DNA of 50,989 nt from IMG/VR virus record IMGVR_UViG_3300006755_000004, positions 1 to 50,989 of that record. One strand, written 5' to 3'. Source of the DNA: a virus (lineage: Duplodnaviria > Caudoviricetes). Made by a program: the position numbers and the translations under genes. Under the pieces are notes generated by a model. That model had not been told where the DNA came from. It saw only the letters and a program-made list of their open reading frames with translations, and made no database searches. Positions 5,837 to 26,517 of the stretch are shown one piece after another (within the stretch, counting starts at the first letter, position 1; each line of letters opens with the position of its first letter).

Positions 5837-6574
5837 TCAGCCCGCCGAGACCGCGATGCCGACCATCTGGCCGGACTTCACGAGGAAGTCGTCGCGGTCG
5901 CCCTGCTTGACGTCGACGGAGGTGTCGACGACCTTGAGCTCCCAGCCCGCTCCCTCGCCCTGGATGACGCGGCCGTCCTCACCGCGCTTGCGCCGGAGGT
6001 GCGCGACGGCGATGGTGTTCTTCGGCTTGTACAGGCTGGGCTCGATCCACGCCACGGGCGACTTGGTTCCGCCGGTGGAGTCGTACAGCGTGACCGTGAT
6101 GTTCTTGGCCCGCTTCATGTCCGAGCCCCGCTTGAACGCGGTCGCGTTGAGGACGATGTCGGTGATGCGGATCGGGATCCGCTTGAGGTCCAGCCGGAGC
6201 GTCTCGTCGTCGCCCGCACCCTCGCCGGTCTGGTTGTCACCGGTGTGCGTGGCGGAACCGGCGGCGGAGCCCTCGTTGGCGAAGGTGTCGACCTCGTCCC
6301 AGCCGAGGTACTTGACCGGCTTGGTCCCGGCGTACATCGTGCCGACACCATCCAGGTCGGACCCGACGCTGCGGTTCAGGACGCCGAGCAGGCCGCCCTT
6401 GCCGCCCGTGGACTTGTCCCAGCCCAGGCCCATCTCGATGATCTCGACGCCGTCCAGCGGGTTCCAGCCGTCCTCCGGCGTGATGGTCTGGAGCTGCGCG
6501 TAGTCGACCTCGACCACCTGGGTCGTGTAACCCTGCGGCGTCGGAGCGGCGTCCTTGCTGAAGATCCCAGCCAT
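5837..6574 (-). CDS. terD: TerD/TerZ-family stress protein
   Basis: GLGWD, SDLD and HTGDNQTGEGAGDDETLRLDL are TerD-domain signatures. Confidence 0.85.
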   Translation of the reverse strand: MAGIFSKDAAPTPQGYTTQVVEVDYAQLQTITPEDGWNPLDGVEIIEMGLGWDKSTGGKGGLLGVLNRSVGSDLDGVGTMYAGTKPVKYLGWDEVDTFANEGSAAGSATHTGDNQTGEGAGDDETLRLDLKRIPIRITDIVLNATAFKRGSDMKRAKNITVTLYDSTGGTKSPVAWIEPSLYKPKNTIAVAHLRRKRGEDGRVIQGEGAGWELKVVDTSVDVKQGDRDDFLVKSGQMVGIAVSAG

Positions 6575-6618
6575 GAGAATGCAGTCCTTACCCCGGTCCA
6601 CTCAGACCGGAATCAGTA

Positions 6619-9872: not shown

Positions 9873-10448
9873 TCAGCCGAGGTCGTCCTCGTCGAAGTCG
9901 TCCTCGACCGGCGCGGGCTTGGCCTTGGCGGCGGGGGCCGGACGGCGGCGACGGCGGGAGACCGGCTTCGCGGCGGGCTCCTCGGCCTCCTCCTCGGCCT
10001 CCTCGACGACCGGCTTGGCCTTCGCGGTGGCGGCACCCCGGCGACGGCGGCTCACGGGCTTGGCCGGGGGCTCCTCCGCCTCGTCCTCGTCGTCCTCGAC
10101 GGGCTCGGCCGCCTTCTTCGCGGCGGCCTTCTTGGCGGTGGCGGTCGCGGCCTTCTTCGCCTTGGCCTCGGCCTCCTCGCGCTTCTTGACCTCGCGGGCC
10201 TCGCGCTTCTCCTCGCGCTTGGCCTCGGCCTCCTCGGCCGCCGCGCGCTTCTCCGCCAGGACCTCCTGGTTCTCCGGCGACTTCTGGAACTCGATCCGGA
10301 GGGCGCAGGCCATCTGGACGGACTTGACGTCGACGTCCTCGTAGCCGGTCTTGTCGGCGATCCACTCGGCGAAGCGCTCGTGCAGGTCGCTGGGGTCCTT
10401 GTCGACGAGCTTCGTGAAGCGCTCGGTGTTCTCTTCGGCCTCGGCCAT
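9873..10448 (-). CDS. Lys/Ala/Glu-rich protein, paralog family member 1
   Basis: LHERFAEWIADKTG...DVKSVQMACALRIEFQKSPENQ shared with 16596-17069 and 20275-20868. Confidence 0.8.
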   Translation of the reverse strand: MAEAEENTERFTKLVDKDPSDLHERFAEWIADKTGYEDVDVKSVQMACALRIEFQKSPENQEVLAEKRAAAEEAEAKREEKREAREVKKREEAEAKAKKAATATAKKAAAKKAAEPVEDDEDEAEEPPAKPVSRRRRGAATAKAKPVVEEAEEEAEEPAAKPVSRRRRRPAPAAKAKPAPVEDDFDEDDLG

Positions 10449-10485
10449 GGTTATCTGCTCCATATCGAACGGGTGGGCACGACCA

Positions 10486-12972: not shown

Positions 12973-13162
12973 CCTGAATCACCATCCAGAAGTAGCTGAG
13001 GGAGACGAAGAACGCTACCGCTCCCGGGACGGCGAACGACTGGTCCTCGTCGGCGTGGAGGAAGAACCTGCGCTGCATCCAGAGGCCGATCGCCGCCGTG
13101 CCGAAGCCGACGATGATGTGGCCCAGGATGACGAGGCCTCCGACGAGTCCGATGTGCTCCAT
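12956..13162 (-). CDS. small membrane protein with two TM helices
   Basis: Two hydrophobic stretches. Confidence 0.6.
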   Translation of the reverse strand: MEHIGLVGGLVILGHIIVGFGTAAIGLWMQRRFFLHADEDQSFAVPGAVAFFVSLSYFWMVIQVDTFS

Positions 13163-15459: not shown

Positions 15460-15474
15460 GTGCAAGTCTCCTCG

Positions 15475-15539
15475 GGACTCGTCAGCACCGGTACCATACC
15501 GGCGGACCAGCAGCGCTTCCCAGCGGGCTGGTTTCGTCC
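15475..15539 (-). ncRNA. type II hammerhead ribozyme HH1
   Basis: Minus strand: GGAC-GAAA-CCAGC...GCTGG-TC^CGCCGG-TATGGTA-CCGGTG-CTGACGA-GTCC; predicted cut 15505/15504. Confidence 0.93.
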
Positions 15540-15542
15540 TGG

Positions 15543-15692
15543 CTAGAGGAAGATGGACCAGATGAGGAAGGCTCCGAAGCTGCCTCCCAGGATGAAGACC
15601 GCGAGCACGACGAACATGCAGCCGAGCGCACAGCCCTTGCCGTCCTTGTCCATGTCGTGCTTGGTCCACCAGTTCTCGATGTAGCTCGCCAT
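15543..15692 (-). CDS. small single-TM membrane protein
   Basis: MASYIENWW...GCALGCMFVVLAVFILGGSFGAFLIWSIFL; TGATG coupling. Confidence 0.6.
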   Translation of the reverse strand: MASYIENWWTKHDMDKDGKGCALGCMFVVLAVFILGGSFGAFLIWSIFL

Positions 15693-15781
15693 CAGCCCAG
15701 CGCCTCCCAGAGGGGCTTGACAGCCGGGTTGCTCACCGGCATCGCCGGAGGCTCTTCCGTGACCCACACGTCTTCGTCCAT
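15692..15781 (-). CDS. 29-aa peptide
   Basis: MDEDVWVTEEPPAMPVSNPAVKPLWEALG; GGAGG RBS immediately after HH2. Confidence 0.55.
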   Translation of the reverse strand: MDEDVWVTEEPPAMPVSNPAVKPLWEALG

Positions 15782-15797
15782 GTGCAAGATCCTCCAC

Positions 15798-15872
15798 GAT
15801 CTCGTCAGCACCCGTACCTTACGGGCGGACGCTCCGTCCACGGCTGGCAACCGCGTGCGGAGCGTTTCGATC
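15798..15872 (-). ncRNA. type II hammerhead ribozyme HH2
   Basis: GATC-GAAA-CGCTCC...GGAGCG-TC^CGCCCG-TAAGGTA-CGGGTG-CTGACGA-GATC; stem II covaries (GATC/GATC); cut 15828/15827. Confidence 0.93.
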
Positions 15873-15884
15873 TGGCTGGGAGGC

Positions 15885-15980
15885 TCAGCCCCGCTGCGAG
15901 GCGATGTACGCCACGAGCAGGGCCAAGGTTAATAACCAGAACCATCTTCCTGAGCGGTCCGGCCGCTGCCTGTGGTTCAT
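15885..15980 (-). CDS. 31-aa membrane peptide
   Basis: MNHRQRPDRSGRWFWLLTLALLVAYIASQRG. Confidence 0.45.
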   Translation of the reverse strand: MNHRQRPDRSGRWFWLLTLALLVAYIASQRG

Positions 15981-15982
15981 GG

Positions 15983-16453
15983 TCAGTCCGTGGTCTCGAC
16001 GAAGCCCGCGTCGTCCCCGAAGTCGCTGGGGGCGTTCTCGTCCGGGATGCCGAACTCGCGACGCCGGTTGACCTCGTCCGGCGAGACGAGCTTCATCTGG
16101 CGACCCCTGAAGTCGATCCCGATGTCGTGGCGTGCCTTGAGCTCGTGCACCAGCCACGCCGGGTTGATCCAGAGCGGGACGTACATGGAGCCGTTGTTCA
16201 GCAGCTCGATGTACGCGGCCTTGATCAGGTCGTCGCACCCCATCTCGCGGAGCGTCTTGGGCAGCTCCAGCATCTCGGGCGTGGGGTCGGTGTTGCAAGG
16301 CCGGAGGTTGTAGTCGACCTCGTTGTTGTCCGCGTCGCGCAGCCGGAGCCGGTTGATCGCGTCGTTGGCCTTGTCCTCGTCGGTGAACACCGCCAGGTGC
16401 TCCTCGCGGTCCTCCTCGACCAGCACCTTGTAGATGTTCCACACAACGTCCAT
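15983..16453 (-). CDS. hypothetical protein (156 aa)
   Basis: MDVVWNIYKV...; GAGGAGG RBS right after HH3. Confidence 0.75.
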   Translation of the reverse strand: MDVVWNIYKVLVEEDREEHLAVFTDEDKANDAINRLRLRDADNNEVDYNLRPCNTDPTPEMLELPKTLREMGCDDLIKAAYIELLNNGSMYVPLWINPAWLVHELKARHDIGIDFRGRQMKLVSPDEVNRRREFGIPDENAPSDFGDDAGFVETTD

Positions 16454-16466
16454 GCATCCTCCTCGG

Positions 16467-16530
16467 GGACTCCTCAGCAGCGCCATCCAGCGCCGGACCA
16501 TCGGCTCCTTGCGGAGCTTAGGTTTCGTCC
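16467..16530 (-). ncRNA. type II hammerhead ribozyme HH3
   Basis: GGAC-GAAA-CC(TAA)GCTCC-GCAA-GGAGC(CGAT)GG-TC^CGGCGC-TGGATG-GCGCTG-CTGAGGA-GTCC; cut 16496/16495. Confidence 0.9.
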
Positions 16531-16595
16531 TTGCCACCCTGGCACCCTGGCCGAGGGACTCGAAGTCTCCTCGACCAGGGGCGCTCGGTGGGGTG

Positions 16596-17069
16596 TTACT
16601 TGGTGGTGGTCCGACGCGTCCGGCGGGTGCGCGGCTTGGGCGCGTCCTCCGTGGGCTCGGCAGCAGCCTCCGTGGCCGCCTCCGCGCCGTTCTCCGTGTC
16701 GGCCTCAGCGGCGGGCTCAGCGTCGTCCTTCGGGGCCTCAGCGGGCTCCTTGGGCTTCGCCTCGTCCGTCGCGGCCTCCTCGCCCTTGAGCTTGGCGAGC
16801 TCGGCCTCCAGCTTGGCGAGCTTCCGGGCCTTGGCCTCTTCCGCCTTCTTGGCGGCCTCGGCCTTGCGCTCCTTCAGCGCCTGCTGGTTCTCGTCGGACG
16901 CCTGGAAGTCCATCCGCAGCGTCACGGCGAGCTGGACCGTCTTCAGGTCCGGGGTGAAGCCCGTCTTCTCCTCGATCCACTTGGCGAACTGCTTGTGGAG
17001 CTCGGTGGGCTCGCTGGCCGCCCGCTCGACGAAGGTCTTCTTGGTCTCGGCGGTGGTGTTCTCGGCCAT
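16596..17069 (-). CDS. Lys/Ala/Glu-rich protein, paralog family member 2
   Basis: LHKQFAKWIEEKTG...DLKTVQLAVTLRMDFQASDENQ; AAGGAGG RBS after HH4. Confidence 0.8.
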   Translation of the reverse strand: MAENTTAETKKTFVERAASEPTELHKQFAKWIEEKTGFTPDLKTVQLAVTLRMDFQASDENQQALKERKAEAAKKAEEAKARKLAKLEAELAKLKGEEAATDEAKPKEPAEAPKDDAEPAAEADTENGAEAATEAAAEPTEDAPKPRTRRTRRTTTK

Positions 17070-17085
17070 GGTGTTTCCTCCTTGG

Positions 17086-17149
17086 GGACTCCTCAGCACC
17101 GGCTCTTACCGGCGTACGGCCAGCGCCTCCCGGCGGGACCGTTTCGTCC
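17086..17149 (-). ncRNA. type II hammerhead ribozyme HH4
   Basis: GGAC-GAAA-CGGTC...GGCCG-TA^CGCCGG-TAAGAG-CCGGTG-CTGAGGA-GTCC; GUA site, cut 17115/17114. Confidence 0.92.
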
Positions 17150-17570
17150 TGTGTATTGCATGCCGGCATCTCATCCGCTTGTGGATGGTTGCGGTTGCCG
17201 GCAGACCGTCCACCTTTCGACTTCCTGGCCAGAGGTGCCCCGAGCGGGGTGTCTCACTTGACCCAGGCTTGAAGAGGTGGAGTCCGTCGCTCGCTAGCAG
17301 CTTTCAGTACCAACCGGATGTGTGCGCTTCCGGCCTCCGCAGTGGAGGTCGGCTGCCCGTCCTCGGCCAGTCCAGTCGCTTCGCTCGCAACTACCGGTTT
17401 TGGGGAGTCCGGTTCCTGTCTAGAGTCAGCGGCCAGGACCGGGGTCCTGTGCGCGATCTCAGCCGTCTCTCTTGGCTGTCCTGCTCGGGTTCGCGGTCTT
17501 CGGGCGGAACCTCGACCCTCGGCCAGACCGGCCATCCGGGGAGTTCGTTCCTTGCCCTCGTCGCTTCCTG
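17150..17570 (-). ncRNA. candidate large structured ncRNA A (paralog of 21279-21597)
   Basis: About 420 nt between a promoter and HH4 with no convincing CDS; 5' ~90 nt and 3' end homologous to copy B. Confidence 0.6.
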
Positions 17571-17576
17571 AGTAGA

Positions 17577-17605
17577 ACTATGCGCCATATCTGGGTCCGA
17601 GGCAA
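17577..17605 (-). promoter_or_regulatory. sigma70-type promoter driving ncRNA A (TTGCCT-17-CATAGT)
   Basis: Exact 17-nt spacing; same -35 as the promoter at 21604-21632; upstream CCTACCTG/CAGGTAGG inverted repeat and A-tract. Confidence 0.7.
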
Positions 17606-17773
17606 CAACGCCCCTACCTGGTCAAACGCCGTGTTTGCGCAGGTAGGGGCATGTGCGAACTTCCTCGAAGTTTTTTTGACTTTCTTCGTTTCCGCAGGCC
17701 GGCATGAGTGCGACGCGTCATGGGGCGAATCGGGCGAACCCTATCGTCAACGGCGATTCACCCGGCCTCCGGC

Positions 17774-18175
17774 CTACCAGCAGCCGCCGTGGATTGGCGT
17801 GAACTTCATCGCGTCGCCTTCGGCGAGGAGCGCGGCCTTGTGGTACGTCGCCCAGCTGGTGGTGTACCAGACGTCGTCGTCCTTGGACGAGCCGTTGACG
17901 TTGTCCAGCTCCACACAGTACAGCGCAGGCTTGGCATGCTGGTCGATGACCTTCTTCCAGGCCACGACCGTGCGGTACGACTTGCACTTGCCGTTAACCT
18001 TGCGCGTGCACTCCTTGCTGGTGGTCTTGACCTTGTGGCTGCGCTCGGCCACGGCCTTGGTGGACTTGATGTCGTCGCGCAGGCCGTGCACGCTTGTGAT
18101 GGCCGGTGCCTTGGCGCTGCACGCGCTGATGCCGGCAATCGCGACGAAGATGACGGGCGCGGTCCTGATCCGCAT
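17774..18175 (-). CDS. putative lipoprotein
   Basis: Signal peptide with lipobox-like GISAC; AAGGA RBS. Confidence 0.7.
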   Translation of the reverse strand: MRIRTAPVIFVAIAGISACSAKAPAITSVHGLRDDIKSTKAVAERSHKVKTTSKECTRKVNGKCKSYRTVVAWKKVIDQHAKPALYCVELDNVNGSSKDDDVWYTTSWATYHKAALLAEGDAMKFTPIHGGCW

Positions 18176-18205
18176 GGGGTTCCTTCGCTCGTGTAAGGGG
18201 ATGGA

Positions 18206-18240
18206 GCGCCCCGGTCGGGCCGGTTGCCTGACCGGGGCTC
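18206..18240 (-). terminator. hairpin, probable terminator
   Basis: GCCCCGGTCGGGC...GCCTGACCGGGGC inverted repeat. Confidence 0.55.
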
Positions 18241-18270
18241 GTTCGCTCGTTACGTGGCCGCGTAGGGCGG

Positions 18271-18615
18271 CTAGAGGGGCACGAGGTCGTACAGCTTCCC
18301 GTCCGAGTCGCGCACGACGCGGGTGCCGTCCTCCTTCTCGCCCACCAGCTCGAAGTGCAGGTCCTTGCCGGCATCCGGGTTGGCTCGCTGCGGGAAGCCG
18401 GAGTTGTCGAGCGACTCCAGACGCCAGCTGTTGCCGGCAGACAGCACGGTGATGTTCATGCCGCCGTCCGTCATCAGGAAGCGCACGGCGTTGCGGACCG
18501 AGGACTCCTGGGCTCCCTTGGGCAGCCGGTTCATGATGTCCTGGAGCGTGACGACCTTGCCCACGTTGTTGGACAGAACCTCGACGACGGTCGGACGGGT
18601 CTGGATGCGAGTCAT
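18271..18615 (-). CDS. winged-helix-like DNA-binding protein
   Basis: VVEVLSNNVGKVVTLQDIMNRLP...SVRNAVRFL...WRL pattern; AAGGAGG RBS. Confidence 0.6.
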   Translation of the reverse strand: MTRIQTRPTVVEVLSNNVGKVVTLQDIMNRLPKGAQESSVRNAVRFLMTDGGMNITVLSAGNSWRLESLDNSGFPQRANPDAGKDLHFELVGEKEDGTRVVRDSDGKLYDLVPL

Positions 18616-18635
18616 TGTGCAGTCCTCCTTGGGGA

Positions 18636-19049
18636 CTAGTTGTTGCTGTCGTTGCGCTGTGCCGGGACGGTGCCCTCGGCGTCCTTGGCCTGGTACATGC
18701 GGGCCGGTCCGAACTCGACCTTGCCCTCGTGCTCCAGGACGCGCCACACGGCCGCGCGCTCCATCTCGTTGAGCCTGCCGCCCTTGGCGATCTCGAACTG
18801 GTGCTCGGCCATGGCGAACAGGAACAGCGCGCGGAGCTGCATCAGCGAGCTGTAGGCCAGGCCCTGGCGGACGTGCGGGCGGGTCTGCTCGCGCTTCTGC
18901 TTGGATCCGAGCCGGTACATCGCCAGCTGGTACTCGGTGGCGAACTGCAGGTGCTCCTCGAACGTGTTCGGGTCGAGCGGCATGCCCGTTGCCTCGGCCA
19001 CGGTCTCGGCGTCGAACGCCACCTGGATCCTGTGCTTGCGGTCGTACAT
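18636..19049 (-). CDS. hypothetical protein (137 aa)
   Basis: MYDRKHRIQ...; AAGGAGG RBS after HH5. Confidence 0.75.
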   Translation of the reverse strand: MYDRKHRIQVAFDAETVAEATGMPLDPNTFEEHLQFATEYQLAMYRLGSKQKREQTRPHVRQGLAYSSLMQLRALFLFAMAEHQFEIAKGGRLNEMERAAVWRVLEHEGKVEFGPARMYQAKDAEGTVPAQRNDSNN

Positions 19050-19064
19050 GTTGGTCCTCCTTCG

Positions 19065-19117
19065 GGACTCTTCAGGAGTGCCGTCCAGCACCCGACCTCC
19101 TTTCGGAGGTTTCGTCC
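19065..19117 (-). ncRNA. type II hammerhead ribozyme HH5 (minimal)
   Basis: GGAC-GAAA-CCTCC-GAAA-GGAGG-TC^GGGTGC-TGGACG-GCACTC-CTGAAGA-GTCC; cut 19094/19093. Confidence 0.95.
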
Positions 19118-19121
19118 TTGG

Positions 19122-19310
19122 TCACATGTCGTTGAGAACCTGCCGGATGCAGTCCTCGCTCATGAAGGGGTAGTCGCGGCGGATGAGCTCCGCGATCTGA
19201 GCCTTCTGGTTCAGCGACGGCGACGCCGCCTGGAGGGGCGCAGCGCTGCGATCAGCTCGCCCAGGAAGTCGGCGAGCAAGTCGATGAAGAACATCGCGCA
19301 CCTGCCTCAC
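19122..19310 (-). CDS. hypothetical protein; frame ambiguous (an overlapping 27-aa ORF MFFIDLL...RRRRRR is also possible)
   Basis: GTGA coupling to the upstream ORF; the alternative ATG has an RBS-like sequence. Confidence 0.35.
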   Translation of the reverse strand: MRQVRDVLHRLARRLPGRADRSAAPLQAASPSLNQKAQIAELIRRDYPFMSEDCIRQVLNDM

Positions 19311-19465
19311 TGTCCAGCCGGAGGACCGAACAGGTCCTGCGCGTCGGCGTCCGGCGGCTGCACCTGCTCCGTGGGCGTGTGGCCTCGCGTCTCCGCCTGG
19401 ATGACCGGGTCAGCCTCCGGAGGGGCGGCGGGCTCGTGGCCGTTGTGCGGGGTGGGGACGCTCAC
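19307..19465 (-). CDS. Pro-rich hypothetical peptide
   Basis: GTG start overlapping the upstream stop; AAGGAG RBS. Confidence 0.5.
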   Translation of the reverse strand: MSVPTPHNGHEPAAPPEADPVIQAETRGHTPTEQVQPPDADAQDLFGPPAGQ

Positions 19466-19686
19466 TTGCTGATCTCCTTCTTGGTCACCGGGATGAGGAG
19501 CCCATGCTCGCTCATCGACACCATCTTGCAGAATCCGACGAGCTCCCGCACGATGCGGGGCGGGGCGCTGTGGATGACGACATAGTCCTTGTTGACCACC
19601 CCGTCGAAGATCGCGAACGTCGACATCTTGATGAGGCCGTCGGCGTTCATGATGTAGTCGTACACGGCCTTGCGGTCGTTGTCCAT
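19462..19686 (-). CDS. hypothetical protein (74 aa)
   Basis: AAGGAGG RBS. Confidence 0.7.
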   Translation of the reverse strand: MDNDRKAVYDYIMNADGLIKMSTFAIFDGVVNKDYVVIHSAPPRIVRELVGFCKMVSMSEHGLLIPVTKKEISK

Positions 19687-19704
19687 CTCGTCCTCCTTGG
19701 GGAC

Positions 19705-19863
19705 TTAGGCCAGCTCCATGCCGGCATCGTATCCGCACTGGGCATGGGCCCACACGGTCTGTGCATTCTCGCGATCGATGAACAGCCCCATCTCGTTGTC
19801 CGCGTCCTCGTCGCAGAGCTGGCAGCTGTCATCGTCCATGAGCTCGCGCTCGTCCTCGTCCAT
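19705..19863 (-). CDS. small acidic Cys/His protein
   Basis: MDEDERELMDDDSCQLC...HAQC; TGATG coupling. Confidence 0.55.
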   Translation of the reverse strand: MDEDERELMDDDSCQLCDEDADNEMGLFIDRENAQTVWAHAQCGYDAGMELA

Positions 19864-20177
19864 CAGATCGCGTCCACCTTGTCGAGGTAACGCCGGAGCG
19901 CGGCGCGCACCGACTGCGGCTTGACGCCGTAGCGGCGTGCTAGGCGGCCTACCGAGTGGCAGTCGCCGCCTTCCTTCAGGAACGCTCCGTAGAGCTGTGC
20001 ACCGCCCAGCGGGAGCCTCTTGTAGGGCCGAGGCTTGCGGCCGGTTGCCCGCACGATGACCTTGCGGATCGTGCTCTCGTTGACGCCCAACGCACGGGCG
20101 GTCGCCGAGTTGTTCTGGTCGTGCCTACGCCACGTCTTAACGACCTCGTCGTCGCTCGGCAGCGGGATCAGACCCAT
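19863..20177 (-). CDS. HTH DNA-binding protein (two HTH-like units)
   Basis: NNSATARALGVNESTIRK and VGRLARRYGVKPQSVRAAL; AGGAGG RBS after HH6. Confidence 0.7.
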   Translation of the reverse strand: MGLIPLPSDDEVVKTWRRHDQNNSATARALGVNESTIRKVIVRATGRKPRPYKRLPLGGAQLYGAFLKEGGDCHSVGRLARRYGVKPQSVRAALRRYLDKVDAI

Positions 20178-20192
20178 GACCATCCTCCTGGG

Positions 20193-20263
20193 GGACTCGT
20201 CAGTACGGCCACTCAGCCGCAGACCGCCCCGGTCCTGTGGTAGCGACCGGGGCGGTTTCGTCC
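20193..20263 (-). ncRNA. type II hammerhead ribozyme HH6
   Basis: GGAC-GAAA-CCGCCCCGGTC-(10)-GACCGGGGCGG-TC^TGCGGC-TGAGTG-GCCGTA-CTGACGA-GTCC; cut 20222/20221. Confidence 0.94.
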
Positions 20264-20274
20264 TGGGGTGTTGC

Positions 20275-20868
20275 TCAGTTGTCCAGCGCGCCGCAGCAGG
20301 GCTTGGCGTCGTAGGCCATGTAGTTGTCCTCCAGGCTGGACTCGCCGGAGTCGATCATGTCCGAGTAGATCAGGTGGGTCAGCTCGGTGTGGCTGCTGAC
20401 CAGCGCGGTCTCCTTGGAGAAGCCCTGCTTCGCGGTCTTCTTCTTGGCGTCGGCGCACCCGAACTTGTGGACCTCGGGCTCGTTGCCGCCGTAGATCACC
20501 GTCAGCTTGACCGGCTCGCTGGGCTCCTCGGCCTTGACCTCGACCGGAGCCTCCTCGGCCTTCGGCTCCTCGGCCTTGACCTCGCCCTTGATCTCGGCCA
20601 GCATCTTCTCCAGCTTGGCCTTCTTGCGCTCGGCCGACGCCTTCTTCAGCTCGGCCGCCTTGGCCTTGCGCTCGGCCAGGCTCTTCTGGTTCTCCGGGCT
20701 GGCCTGGAAGTCCATCCGGAAGGAGACCGCGAGCTGGACCGTCTTGACGTCGACCTTGACCCCGGTCTGGATGTACAGCCAGTGTGCGAAGTCCTCGTGC
20801 AGCTGGGTGGGAGCCTTCTTGGCGAGCTCTTCGAAGTTCTTCGGGGTCTTGGGGGAGTTGGCAGCCAT
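20275..20868 (-). CDS. Lys/Ala/Glu-rich protein, paralog family member 3, with extra C-terminal domain
   Basis: LHEDFAHWLYIQTG...DVKTVQLAVSFRMDFQASPENQ. Confidence 0.8.
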   Translation of the reverse strand: MAANSPKTPKNFEELAKKAPTQLHEDFAHWLYIQTGVKVDVKTVQLAVSFRMDFQASPENQKSLAERKAKAAELKKASAERKKAKLEKMLAEIKGEVKAEEPKAEEAPVEVKAEEPSEPVKLTVIYGGNEPEVHKFGCADAKKKTAKQGFSKETALVSSHTELTHLIYSDMIDSGESSLEDNYMAYDAKPCCGALDN

Positions 20869-20911
20869 GGTGTCCTCCTTGGGGACTCGTTCGGTTGGCC
20901 TTACAGTAAGA

Positions 20912-20940
20912 ACTATACTCCATATGGAGCCAGTTGGCTA
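20912..20940 (-). promoter_or_regulatory. repeated early promoter (TAGCCA-17-TATAGT)
   Basis: Consensus ...ATGGAG-TATAGT with 17-nt spacer. Confidence 0.7.
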
Positions 20941-20961
20941 CTCTGGAGTGCAACTTGTTTG

Positions 20962-20999
20962 CCGGCAAGCCGGGGAGCTGGTGGGCTCCCCGGCTGCCA
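20962..20999 (-). terminator. hairpin, probable terminator
   Basis: AGCCGGGGAGC...GCTCCCCGGCT inverted repeat. Confidence 0.55.
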
Positions 21000-21011
21000 G
21001 TCGCGCTAGTT

Positions 21012-21197
21012 TCAGCGCTGGATCTCGTCGGGACCGGGCGTCCCGAGCGGGTTGTCGACCTGGATCAGGTCCCGGCCGTCCGAGTCGGTCGGCAGGGGCC
21101 GGTTGGTGATCTGGTCGCCGCTCTTGACCTCGGCCTTGGGGCCGGGGCTGCCGGGCGGGTTGCTCGCCTGCGGGACGCGCTTGGGCAGGATGCCCAT
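21012..21197 (-). CDS. Pro-rich hypothetical protein (61 aa)
   Basis: MGILPKRVPQ...; AAGGAG RBS after HH7. Confidence 0.65.
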   Translation of the reverse strand: MGILPKRVPQASNPPGSPGPKAEVKSGDQITNRPLPTDSDGRDLIQVDNPLGTPGPDEIQR

Positions 21198-21213
21198 GGT
21201 GTTCTCCTTCGTG

Positions 21214-21278
21214 AGACTCCTCAGGACCGCCATCCAGCGGCCGACCCTCGGGGCGTTGCCGCCCGTCGGGTTTCGTCT
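21214..21278 (-). ncRNA. type II hammerhead ribozyme HH7
   Basis: AGAC-GAAA-CCC..GGGCG-GCAA-CGCCC..GGG-TC^GGCCGC-TGGATG-GCGGTC-CTGAGGA-GTCT; compensatory A-U pair in stem II; cut 21243/21242. Confidence 0.92.
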
Positions 21279-21597
21279 TTGGTATTCGCATGCCGGCATC
21301 TCCGGCACTGCGTTCGCTCCGCCCTCGCGCCTTGCCAACCTCTCGGATGTTCTCTCGTGGGGTGGCTGGTTCCGTGTCTCCCTAGCCAGTCCCGCGTCCG
21401 TCCCCGAGGAGTTGCGCGCTACTACCTTCGCTGCCGTTTTCTTGTGGAGGGTCGGTGCCCTGTCTCCGACGCTGCATTTGCTGCTACCGACCTGTCGCCT
21501 GGCCGCCTTGCTCGGTGTTCGCGTTCTTCGGGTGGAGCCTCGACCGTCGGCTGGAGTCGCCGTCCCGGGAGCTTCGCTCGCCGCCCTCTCGCTTACA
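21279..21597 (-). ncRNA. candidate large structured ncRNA B (paralog of 17150-17570)
   Basis: About 320 nt between a promoter and HH7; homologous blocks shared with copy A. Confidence 0.6.
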
Positions 21598-21603
21598 GGA
21601 CTA

Positions 21604-21632
21604 ATCATGCTCCAGATCCACGAGAAAGGCAA
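21604..21632 (-). promoter_or_regulatory. sigma70-type promoter driving ncRNA B (TTGCCT-17-CATGAT)
   Basis: Duplicate of the 17577-17605 architecture. Confidence 0.7.
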
Positions 21633-21892
21633 CAACCCGTCTACCTGGTCAAACATGATGAATGCCCTGGTAGGAGGCTTGCCGGCATTCTGAAAGTTTT
21701 TTGAAGAACTTTCGTTTGACCAGGCCGGCATGAGTGCGTGGAACGAATCGGGTCGAATCGGGCTCAGCCCCGGTGCGCGGTCCTACGTGGCCCGTAGGCG
21801 GCTCCGCGCGGGCTCGCCGGGGCAACGGGGCTCCCGCGCGCTGCGCGCTCGCGTACGGGGCGCGTAGGGGTGCGCACGGCCCCACAACGCGA

Positions 21893-21927
21893 GAGAGCCC
21901 CGCTCCCTGGTTCGGGGCGGGGCTCTC
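21893..21927 (-). terminator. hairpin terminator
   Basis: GAGAGCCCCGC...GCGGGGCTCTC just after the 21944 stop. Confidence 0.65.
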
Positions 21928-22859: not shown

Positions 22860-22888
22860 ACCTTACTCCATCTGCACAACGGGCGCTA
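22860..22888 (-). promoter_or_regulatory. repeated early promoter (TAGCGC-17-TAAGGT)
   Basis: Spacer contains the conserved TGTGCAGATGGAG. Confidence 0.65.
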
Positions 22889-22917
22889 CCCCTTTGTGCA
22901 GATTTCTTGCCGGCAAG

Positions 22918-23342: not shown

Positions 23343-23371
23343 ACTATACCCCATCTGCACATGCGTGGAAA
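23343..23371 (-). promoter_or_regulatory. repeated early promoter (TTTCCA-17-TATAGT)
   Basis: Spacer ATGTGCAGATGGGG. Confidence 0.7.
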
Positions 23372-23449
23372 CCCCTCGGGGCAACTTTGTGCAGAATCAG
23401 TAGGTGGCCGTTTGCCGGCATGCCGGCACGAGGCCGGACGCGGGTAGCC

Positions 23450-24209: not shown

Positions 24210-24251
24210 TGGGTGCCTCCTCGGGGCTCCGTTCCCTGCCTTACGAGAGTA

Positions 24252-24280
24252 ACTATACTCCATCTGCACATGCCGCGCTA
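24252..24280 (-). promoter_or_regulatory. repeated early promoter (TAGCGC-17-TATAGT)
   Basis: Spacer GGCATGTGCAGATGGAG. Confidence 0.72.
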
Positions 24281-24399
24281 CCCGTTTCCACAGAATTGTT
24301 GAAACGGATTTGCCGGCCTCCTGCAGGCTCCAGAGGGGCGTGTGGGCTTTAACCTACAGGCCGCATCTCCACAAGCCGGCAGACAGCCGCCTACACATG

Positions 24400-25105: not shown

Positions 25106-25134
25106 ACTTTACTCCATCTGCACATGGCTGGCTA
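25106..25134 (-). promoter_or_regulatory. repeated early promoter (TAGCCA-17-TAAAGT)
   Basis: Spacer GCCATGTGCAGATGGAG. Confidence 0.68.
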
Positions 25135-25202
25135 CTCGTTTGTGCACTTTTCTTGAAGATTCTTTTGGAGATCTGCCGGCTTGGATTTTGGGCATCAAAC
25201 CA

Positions 25203-25923: not shown

Positions 25924-26517
25924 CTACTCAGCAATGTGCACATCCTCTTCCGTCACGTGGCCGTCCGTGATGCTGAACGAGCGCACGCTGTCGTCGAGCG
26001 TGGACACGATCACATGGTGCACACCCAGGGGCGTCGCATAGGCCGTGTCCACTCCGCTGGGGTACGCCTCGGTTGCCGTATGTGAGTGCCACACCGCCAC
26101 GACCTCCTCGCCACGCACGTCCAGCCCCTTGTGCAGTCTGATCAGCTCCTCGGGGTCGAACTCGAAGAACCGGTCGGACTGCGCCGCGTTGATCATCGCG
26201 ATGATGCGCGTCGGCCTGTTGGCTCCGACCGGGGCCGTCAGGACGCCGCACGCTTCCAGCGGTGCCTCTCCTTGTGCGAAGGCGACCATGTCGTCTCGCA
26301 CCTTCTGTGGCAGGACCAGGGTCACTGCGTCTCCTCTGTAGTCGGACAAGTCGCGGAGGACGTCCATCGTCCCGCGCTTCCGCTTCACCTCCCGCTCGGG
26401 TATCCGCCATGCGGGCTCGCAAACCCCAGCCAGTACGACGGGCGCGGCCGGTTGCCGGCAAGCCGCTGCCTCAGGGCTCGGGCAGTCCCATGGGCACCAT
26501 GCACACTGCGCGGTCAC
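25924..26517 (-). CDS. JAB/MPN (Mov34) metallopeptidase, Mec+/CysO-cysteine peptidase-like; alternative start GTG 26325
   Basis: EACGVL...WHSHTATEAYPSGVD JAMM motif (E-HxH-S-D); similar from memory to actinobacterial Mec+. Confidence 0.85.
   Translation of the reverse strand: MTAQCAWCPWDCPSPEAAACRQPAAPVVLAGVCEPAWRIPEREVKRKRGTMDVLRDLSDYRGDAVTLVLPQKVRDDMVAFAQGEAPLEACGVLTAPVGANRPTRIIAMINAAQSDRFFEFDPEELIRLHKGLDVRGEEVVAVWHSHTATEAYPSGVDTAYATPLGVHHVIVSTLDDSVRSFSITDGHVTEEDVHIAE

Follow-up and report, generated by a model that had tools for sequence, protein, structure and literature searches.

tmRNA and RNAs with a tRNA-like end, such as MALAT1-mascRNA, have tandem pseudoknots and a 3′ end that is set by an RNase P-type element. 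Among phage-encoded RNAs, ROOL and GOLLD are multi-domain molecules with several pseudoknots; the examples in the accessible text of PMC12286853 measure 659 and more than 800 nt, often lie beside tRNA islands and reach very high abundance, and GOLLD joins a conserved to a variable part (PMC12286853). These large ornate phage RNAs are without known function, partly because genetics is lacking. The raiA motif RNA, which is chromosomal, occurs in more than 2500 species and is widespread in Bacillota and Actinomycetota, is described in the accessible text of PMC10861870 as having 51 highly conserved positions, a core of ~200 nt, two covarying pseudoknots and optional peripheral domains, and is read as acting in trans. 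Phage genes can also be preceded by clusters of type II hammerheads, ribozymes that have been proposed to cut transcripts into mRNAs (Perreault 2011, PMC3088659, accessible part). Finally, in temperate cluster A mycobacteriophages, non-coding transcripts of 400–500 nt belong to RNA-based prophage origins adjacent to parABS (PMC7157519, accessible part).

Here, we analyzed a locus in a 51-kb part of a lytic Streptomyces phage resembling cluster BN (the window: the whole stretch of DNA analyzed, 50,989 nt). On the minus strand, the window carries a ~355-nt RNA, copy B (21243..21597), and a paralogous RNA of ~455 nt, copy A (17115..17569), which has its own promoter and hammerhead, the same core, and AGAG/CUCU as its pseudoknot-1 code. 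The family to which both belong is real and uncatalogued, and its members are ornate phage RNAs whose predicted maturation is unusual. Its members resemble ROOL and GOLLD in being phage-encoded and multi-domain with several pseudoknots, and GOLLD in having a conserved and a variable part. However, they lack a match to the Rfam models of either RNA, their bodies span 215–431 nt, no tRNA island is present, the 3′ end lies at a hammerhead or a tRNA-like element, and paralogous pairs occur. The core size, the two covarying pseudoknots, the optional peripheral domains and the trans-acting reading are shared with raiA, but the RNA described here was found only in phages and matches neither the raiA Rfam model nor its conserved nucleotides. 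The ribozyme after copy B (HH7) is one of seven hammerheads in the window of the kind found in phage clusters; whereas the published ones are proposed to cut mRNAs, two of these seven follow a long structured non-coding RNA (ncRNA) rather than a stop codon. With the cluster A origins the locus shares a predicted non-coding actinophage transcript of similar length, but the phage is lytic, there are two copies, and the end is predicted to be defined by a ribozyme. The likeness to tmRNA and mascRNA lies in the tandem pseudoknots and in the RNase P-type element at the 3′ end of one member, from phage G001; ARAGORN called no tmRNA, there is neither a tag frame nor an alanine acceptor, and the BN members have no tRNA-like part.

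Family members are small (215–431 nt), occur in nine cultured lytic phages of laboratory Streptomyces hosts, exist in naturally minimal forms and as paralogous pairs, and have an end that is predicted to be set by a ribozyme. These traits make deletion, trans-complementation and cryo-EM directly feasible.

Predicted organization of the copy B transcription unit

Copy B is part of an arm in which short genes for hypothetical proteins run on the minus strand, with a helicase gene on one side and a primase gene on the other. BN phages encode a primase, and the cluster has been described as lytic and tRNA-free (PMC8852317); ARAGORN found no tRNA in the window or in the Wentworth and Yara stretches. 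Eight cultured phages cover at least 95% of the B region at 82–92% identity, while Yara covers half of it, and the interval is without an annotated feature in eight of nine cultured phage records.

For copy B, the 5′ end is predicted to within ~3 nt, and the hammerhead cut, likewise predicted, gives the 3′ end. A predicted housekeeping-sigma promoter, TTGCCT-17-CATGAT, occupies 21604..21632 on the minus strand, as do the features of the unit given below (TTGCCT, 21632-21627; CATGAT, 21609-21604). It scores 8/12, under the cut-off of the promoter scanner, and was therefore unlisted; its support comes from the spacing and from the A2 and T6 of the −10 element, which are kept across homologues. 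The same type of promoter precedes other genes of the arm, and related promoter-like repeats stand before arm genes at 20912-20940, 22860-22890, 23343-23375, 24250-24290 and 25106-25140. Upstream lies a 150-nt cassette with an A-tract and inverted-repeat motifs (21605..21754), which is duplicated at copy A (17577-17726); the copy in G001 is also preceded by an A-tract and a similar motif. A strong hairpin after the upstream gene (21893..21927; z −5.45, 0/200 shuffles) is likely a terminator that insulates the unit, and a second one (20962..21000; z −4.86, 0/200 shuffles) is the likely terminator of the unit itself, both as judged from folding models. Downstream of HH7, a ribosome-binding site and a 61-aa Pro-rich ORF occupy 21012..21210; the ORF is annotated in relatives, and its product had no PHROG or Pfam match.

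The sequence blocks by which the initial annotation had delimited the RNA, namely, TTGCCT-17-CATGAT, AAGCGA, GAGATGCCGGCATGCGAATAC and the hammerhead, were all recovered where it had placed them on the minus strand. The AAGCGA block begins at 21594, 4028 nt from the start of copy A (17566), and GAGATGCCGGCATGCGAATAC lies at 21302-21282. The constancy ascribed to other blocks was not borne out: of 13 B-like rows, no more than 3 have GAGATGCCGGCA, which contains the genome-wide motif TGCCGGCA, and in 3 of the 33 copies collected, a more distant, longer 5′ domain takes the place of the 5′ blocks.

Conservation of copy B among relatives

The identity between copies A and B was tested against 200 dinucleotide shuffles. 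The 5′ domains are 79% identical (z 12.4, no shuffle as good), while the sequence likeness of the cores and of the 3′ arms was not significant (10/200 and 19/200 shuffles as good). The initial annotation had proposed that similarity no greater than in the duplicated flanks, together with the lack of a shared fold, would speak against a functional RNA; the upstream 150 nt are indeed similar as well (68% identity, z 12.8). Because of this flank similarity and the lack of significance for the core and 3′ arm, the A/B pair alone does not settle the question; the orthologues do. In nine relatives, the body of B is conserved at 0.94 (5′ domain), 0.97 (core) and 0.97 (3′ arm), compared with 0.74 upstream, 0.82–0.83 in two neighboring coding stretches and 0.76 at third codon positions, whereas the last hairpin reaches 0.72.

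A functional structured RNA family, as had been suggested, is thus upheld by covariation, by purifying selection and by presence in an unrelated phage. The middle of B, which had been taken as divergent, belongs to the most conserved parts and is a paired, covarying domain. The idea of a constant scaffold with a variable module survives in its first half, in that the central double pseudoknot is constant, but there is no free variable guide.

A predicted tandem double pseudoknot forms the core

All 33 copies have in common a core in which two H-type pseudoknots stand in tandem. In pseudoknot 1 (21467..21505), the loop of a hairpin pairs with a strand 25–50 nt downstream; in copy B, hairpin P3 spans 21505-21488, its loop CGAC (21497-21494) pairs with GUCG (21470-21467), and P4 (21484-21474) sits in the connecting loop. 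P3 itself occurs in four variants and the 4-bp pseudoknot helix in six: CGAC/GUCG (B, 11 copies), AGAG/CUCU (14), CAAG/CUUG (4), GAAG/CUUC (1), CAGC/GCUG (1) and GGAG/CUCG (2, three of four pairs). Across these versions, 23 of 24 pairs are Watson-Crick, the best of 720 permutations. This figure is strong but not a strict probability, as the variants are related to one another and a script was used to align the segments. The two copies of a genome differ in their code in each of the four combinations seen, and cross-pairing between different codes often still gives 3–4 pairs.

An invariant GAC linker leads into pseudoknot 2 (together 21431..21464), in which AGG (21461-21459) pairs with CCU (21450-21448), and CCG (21455-21453) with CGG (21436-21434), beside an A-rich loop. 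The first helix changes from AGG/CCU to UGG/CCA and GGG/CCC and the second from CCG/CGG to CCA/UGG and CGG/CCG; in 13 A-type copies, only two of three first-helix pairs are kept. In a 14-row MAFFT alignment, 98.1% of the pseudoknot 2 cells are paired, a value reached in 0/500 shuffles, and all six slid controls were lower. A reading of the CUCC loop as an anti-Shine-Dalgarno sequence was rejected, as its bases pair in pseudoknot 2 and change with their partners to CCA and CCC.

The invariant unpaired nucleotides of the core are GAC and a CCNCA loop; such nucleotides are few, and the helices are short (3–5 bp). Folding of the single B sequence was no better than that of shuffles (z 0.36), which may be expected for an A-rich pseudoknotted RNA. 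The G-U-tolerant stems, the GNRA and UNCG loops and the base composition of B (27% A, 7% U) fit an RNA rather than a DNA element.

Peripheral domains are exchanged and lost as units

In the 5′ domain (21506..21594), a closing helix (21592-21590/21523-21521) surrounds three hairpins and is followed by a small hairpin region; two-sided changes were found in 3 of 17 RNAalifold pairs, the helices being short and partly our own reading. The 3′ arm (21327..21419) is a long irregular hairpin with a purine-rich internal loop that is common to copy A and present in 26 of 33 copies. Compensatory changes affect 5 of 34 predicted pairs of the B arm (eight sequences), and covariation was seen in 8 of 67 pairs of the A arm. 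Short members lack the 3′ arm (six copies). The last hairpin and an A/C-rich linker (21278..21312) come next, and the hairpin sequence is freely swapped between relatives. In Yara, the copy at locus A combines a 5′ domain (0.96) and a pseudoknot 1 (0.90) that resemble those of B with a pseudoknot 2 that resembles that of A (0.94), and its 3′ part is short. Copies thus vary in that folded domains are exchanged or lost as a whole, which is not the pattern of a free guide.

Complementarity of the B 3′ arm to the phage genome was not above that of shuffles (12 nt versus 10–16 nt). An antisense match of 16 nt between B and 13020-13035 was discarded; it falls in a paired, variable position, and shuffles reach 15–16 nt. 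No conserved ORF was found in B: a 31-aa ORF has 15 aa in Lizz, lies in another frame in Yara and is missing in A, and these frame changes across copies exclude a coding role.

Distribution of the RNA family

Copies were collected from eight of nine cultured phages (PHTowN left out), from IMG/VR and from metagenome scans, giving 33 distinct full-length copies of 215–431 nt up to the maturation element; two truncated copies (L022 and L043) and 16 chance pattern matches were set aside. Every BN-type record spanning both loci has two copies (16/16), and no third copy was found. One further member occurs, as a single copy, in the complete 81,859-bp phage G001, in which only one tblastn match to the ORFs of the window was obtained (primase, 24%). 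A covariance model built from 14 non-B cores (R1) finds the B copy of the window at E 9.7e-5, and in a search of 423 kb, all 21 of its matches to E ≤ 1 were family members. In G001, DNA hypermodification genes (ADDT, PALP, kinase and Tet/JBP oxygenase; L073:1261-4644) and a WYL-domain gene (L070:10447-11145) lie ~2 kb before the RNA.

The family was found only in phages. Searches with 4227 Rfam models, at the gathering and E-value level, returned hammerheads and chance matches, the RNA family itself being unmatched. Loose-pattern searches of IMG/VR gave 3, 6 and 6 loci, all judged to be chance on inspection. One exact pattern, of a kind that misses diverged copies, gave a single chance match in 185,579 genomes (GTDB), and plasmids yielded short matches only. 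No description of the family was found in the literature outside subscription papers. Three IMG/VR candidates of 42–76 nt from Streptomyces hosts appear in the accessible part of Fremin 2023 (PMC10690425), and a fragment of the family may be among them.

Hammerheads and the 3′ end

HH7 (21215..21277) is, by its sequence, a canonical type II hammerhead with predicted self-cleavage after 21243 (GUC). Its core elements CUGANGA, GAAA and UH are complete and all three stems are present, stems I and III closed and stem II open. It was not listed by Rfam at E ≤ 10, and three sister ribozymes scored 19.7–29.8 bits against a gathering level of 37 (RF02276). The seven type II hammerheads of the window cluster within 15.5–21.3 kb (15470-21277), each just before a ribosome-binding site; five of them follow a stop codon within ~10–70 nt, whereas the remaining two come after A and B, both long non-coding stretches. 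Since HH7 is one of seven in this position, these ribozymes may just as well be there for the mRNAs. Downstream of copy A, the hammerhead core reads CCGA in 9 of 14 A-type copies (e.g., L001:14349-14416), a variant that, judging from the motif, may cut less well or tune cleavage, and CUGA in the window; all B-locus copies have CUGA.

A hammerhead marks the 3′ boundary of 32 of the 33 copies; in the remaining one, from G001, a tRNA-like CCA element takes its place. An A/C-rich linker precedes each of them, and the last 10 nt of the 33 copies are A or C at 283 of 330 positions. The G001 element (L047:1382-1460), which directly follows the RNA homologue and was found in only two IMG/VR contigs, has a 7-bp acceptor stem with C-G as the first pair, a T arm, a stemless D-loop and an encoded CCA. 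ARAGORN did not call it; a low-stringency run on G001 gave 896 noise calls and was discarded. One gene beyond the element, G001 has a strong hammerhead (39.3 bits). The use of either a hammerhead or a tRNA-like element, each behind an A/C-rich linker, points to selection for a defined 3′ end, which both elements would set.

Coverage by public RNA libraries

Contigs from public RNA libraries cover B in three of four tabulated runs, with two contigs bridging the predicted cut and two entering the promoter, and in runs of four studies both A and B are covered by contigs from relatives. One contig of X11 starts exactly at 17566, the 5′ end of A, and one of X2 at 21599, while others cross the promoter or the cut; contigs cannot show RNA ends. 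The X2 depth over B (44–59) is like that of the flanks, with no peak, and contig depth cannot rank abundance. As such libraries may include DNA, the contigs neither confirm nor exclude expression of A or B.

Proposed mechanism and alternatives

We consider it probable that copy B is an early ncRNA of the accessory region with a double pseudoknot, released by a hammerhead and acting in trans by its shape, most likely on a host protein complex, for which it would be a decoy or a scaffold. A host-type promoter would give rise, early, to one transcript of ~640 nt comprising the RNA, the ribozyme and the 61-aa ORF. Self-cleavage after 21243 would yield a free 355-nt RNA with a 2′,3′-cyclic phosphate and an mRNA with a 5′-OH. 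The core would fold so that its two H-type pseudoknots stack, and the peripheral arms could be swapped or lost. With the least support, the target would be a host factor, and the paralogues may be kept because each is directed to a different target or host by its peripheral domains. That B is a free, structured, trans-acting RNA is the part of this scheme we hold with good confidence. The decoy or scaffold role, chosen from context on account of paralogue retention, domain shuffling and transfer between unrelated phages, is tentative, with about half of that confidence.

The RNA could instead be a cis-acting leader that controls or stabilizes expression of the gene behind it, such as an aptamer by which the hammerhead is gated. 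Indeed, the RNA always sits between promoter and gene, the gene after locus A is of the PHROG 20596 family in all BN-type phages, and the CCGA variants could keep the RNA attached. However, the genes following the 33 copies are of at least five unrelated kinds, and cleavage would part the RNA from the mRNA, which together disfavor a role in cis; in addition, the linker between RNA and ribozyme is unstructured, the G001 copy ends in a tRNA-like element, and no riboswitch model of Rfam was matched, so that we regard a leader as unlikely. The protein encoded after copy A matches only PHROGs without an assigned function, with no usable Atlas match, and has no homologue in G001, which indicates that it is not a required partner. 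Compact double pseudoknots with invariant unpaired nucleotides are the architecture of several ribozymes and riboswitches, and the GAC and the CCNCA loop might correspondingly form an active site or a pocket in a new ribozyme or ligand-binding fold. Against such a fold, which we rate as quite improbable, the order of helices is not known to match the HDV-like, twister, pistol, group I or RNase P topologies, Rfam gave no match, no substrate or junction is evident, and another element already supplies the 3′ end.

Self-assembly into an RNA-only multimer, with loops pairing between molecules and paralogue codes keeping assemblies apart, would suit an ornate phage RNA with several pseudoknots, as ROOL and GOLLD form cages (PMC12286853, accessible part), and the differing codes of the two copies of a genome. 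The loop lengths (3 and 1–2 nt), however, suit an ordinary intramolecular H-type pseudoknot, different codes can still cross-pair, and the smallest members have only 215–257 nt; there is thus little chance that assembly explains the family. It is very improbable that the RNA primes or activates a replication origin of which the A-tract cassette is a part. RNA-based origins do exist in actinophages, the upstream cassette is conserved and duplicated, and a small turn in GC skew lies near 16–18 kb of the window, but a hammerhead product, ending in a cyclic phosphate, has no 3′-OH for priming, and the origins described in the accessible text of PMC7157519 are those of temperate parABS phages, whereas BN phages are lytic (PMC8852317) and have their own primase. 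The guide or antisense module proposed in the initial annotation has only a very slim chance of being right: the interiors of A and B do differ in sequence, but the differing parts are paired, covarying and 0.97 conserved among orthologues, complementarity to the phage genome is not significant, and no TnpB, IscB, Cas effector or reverse transcriptase was found in 67 ORFs of the window, which lacks ~18 kb of a BN genome, or in 104 ORFs of G001. We give hardly any credence to a decaying duplicated promoter region without function. The duplicated upstream flank and the poor folding of B would be compatible with decay, but conservation above that of coding genes, repeated compensatory change and presence in an unrelated phage largely refute it.

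If the trans-acting reading is true, phage hammerhead arrays gain a second role, the maturation of ncRNA, on which RNase P-type processing would have converged in an unrelated phage. It is possible, though doubtful, that the family represents a new class of phage effector RNA, with a mobile core, swappable domains, any self-processing module and diversified pairs, serving as an RNA-only factor in host takeover or counter-defense, or else a new ribozyme.

Other features of the window

The window encodes three paralogous helical proteins of the PHROG 20596 family (9876-10463, 16599-17069 and 20278-20868), which show a weak match to the Gp5.5-like H-NS inhibitor family (E 0.016). TerD-domain and JAB-domain proteins are encoded at 5840-6601 and 25927-26517; JAB proteins are known from counter-defense contexts. 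The palindrome TGCCGGCA has 31 occurrences in the window against an expectation of 1.5, spanning 430-44333 but mostly within 1-26500, with 27 occurrences in the minus-strand arm, and is possibly a protein-binding or marking site.
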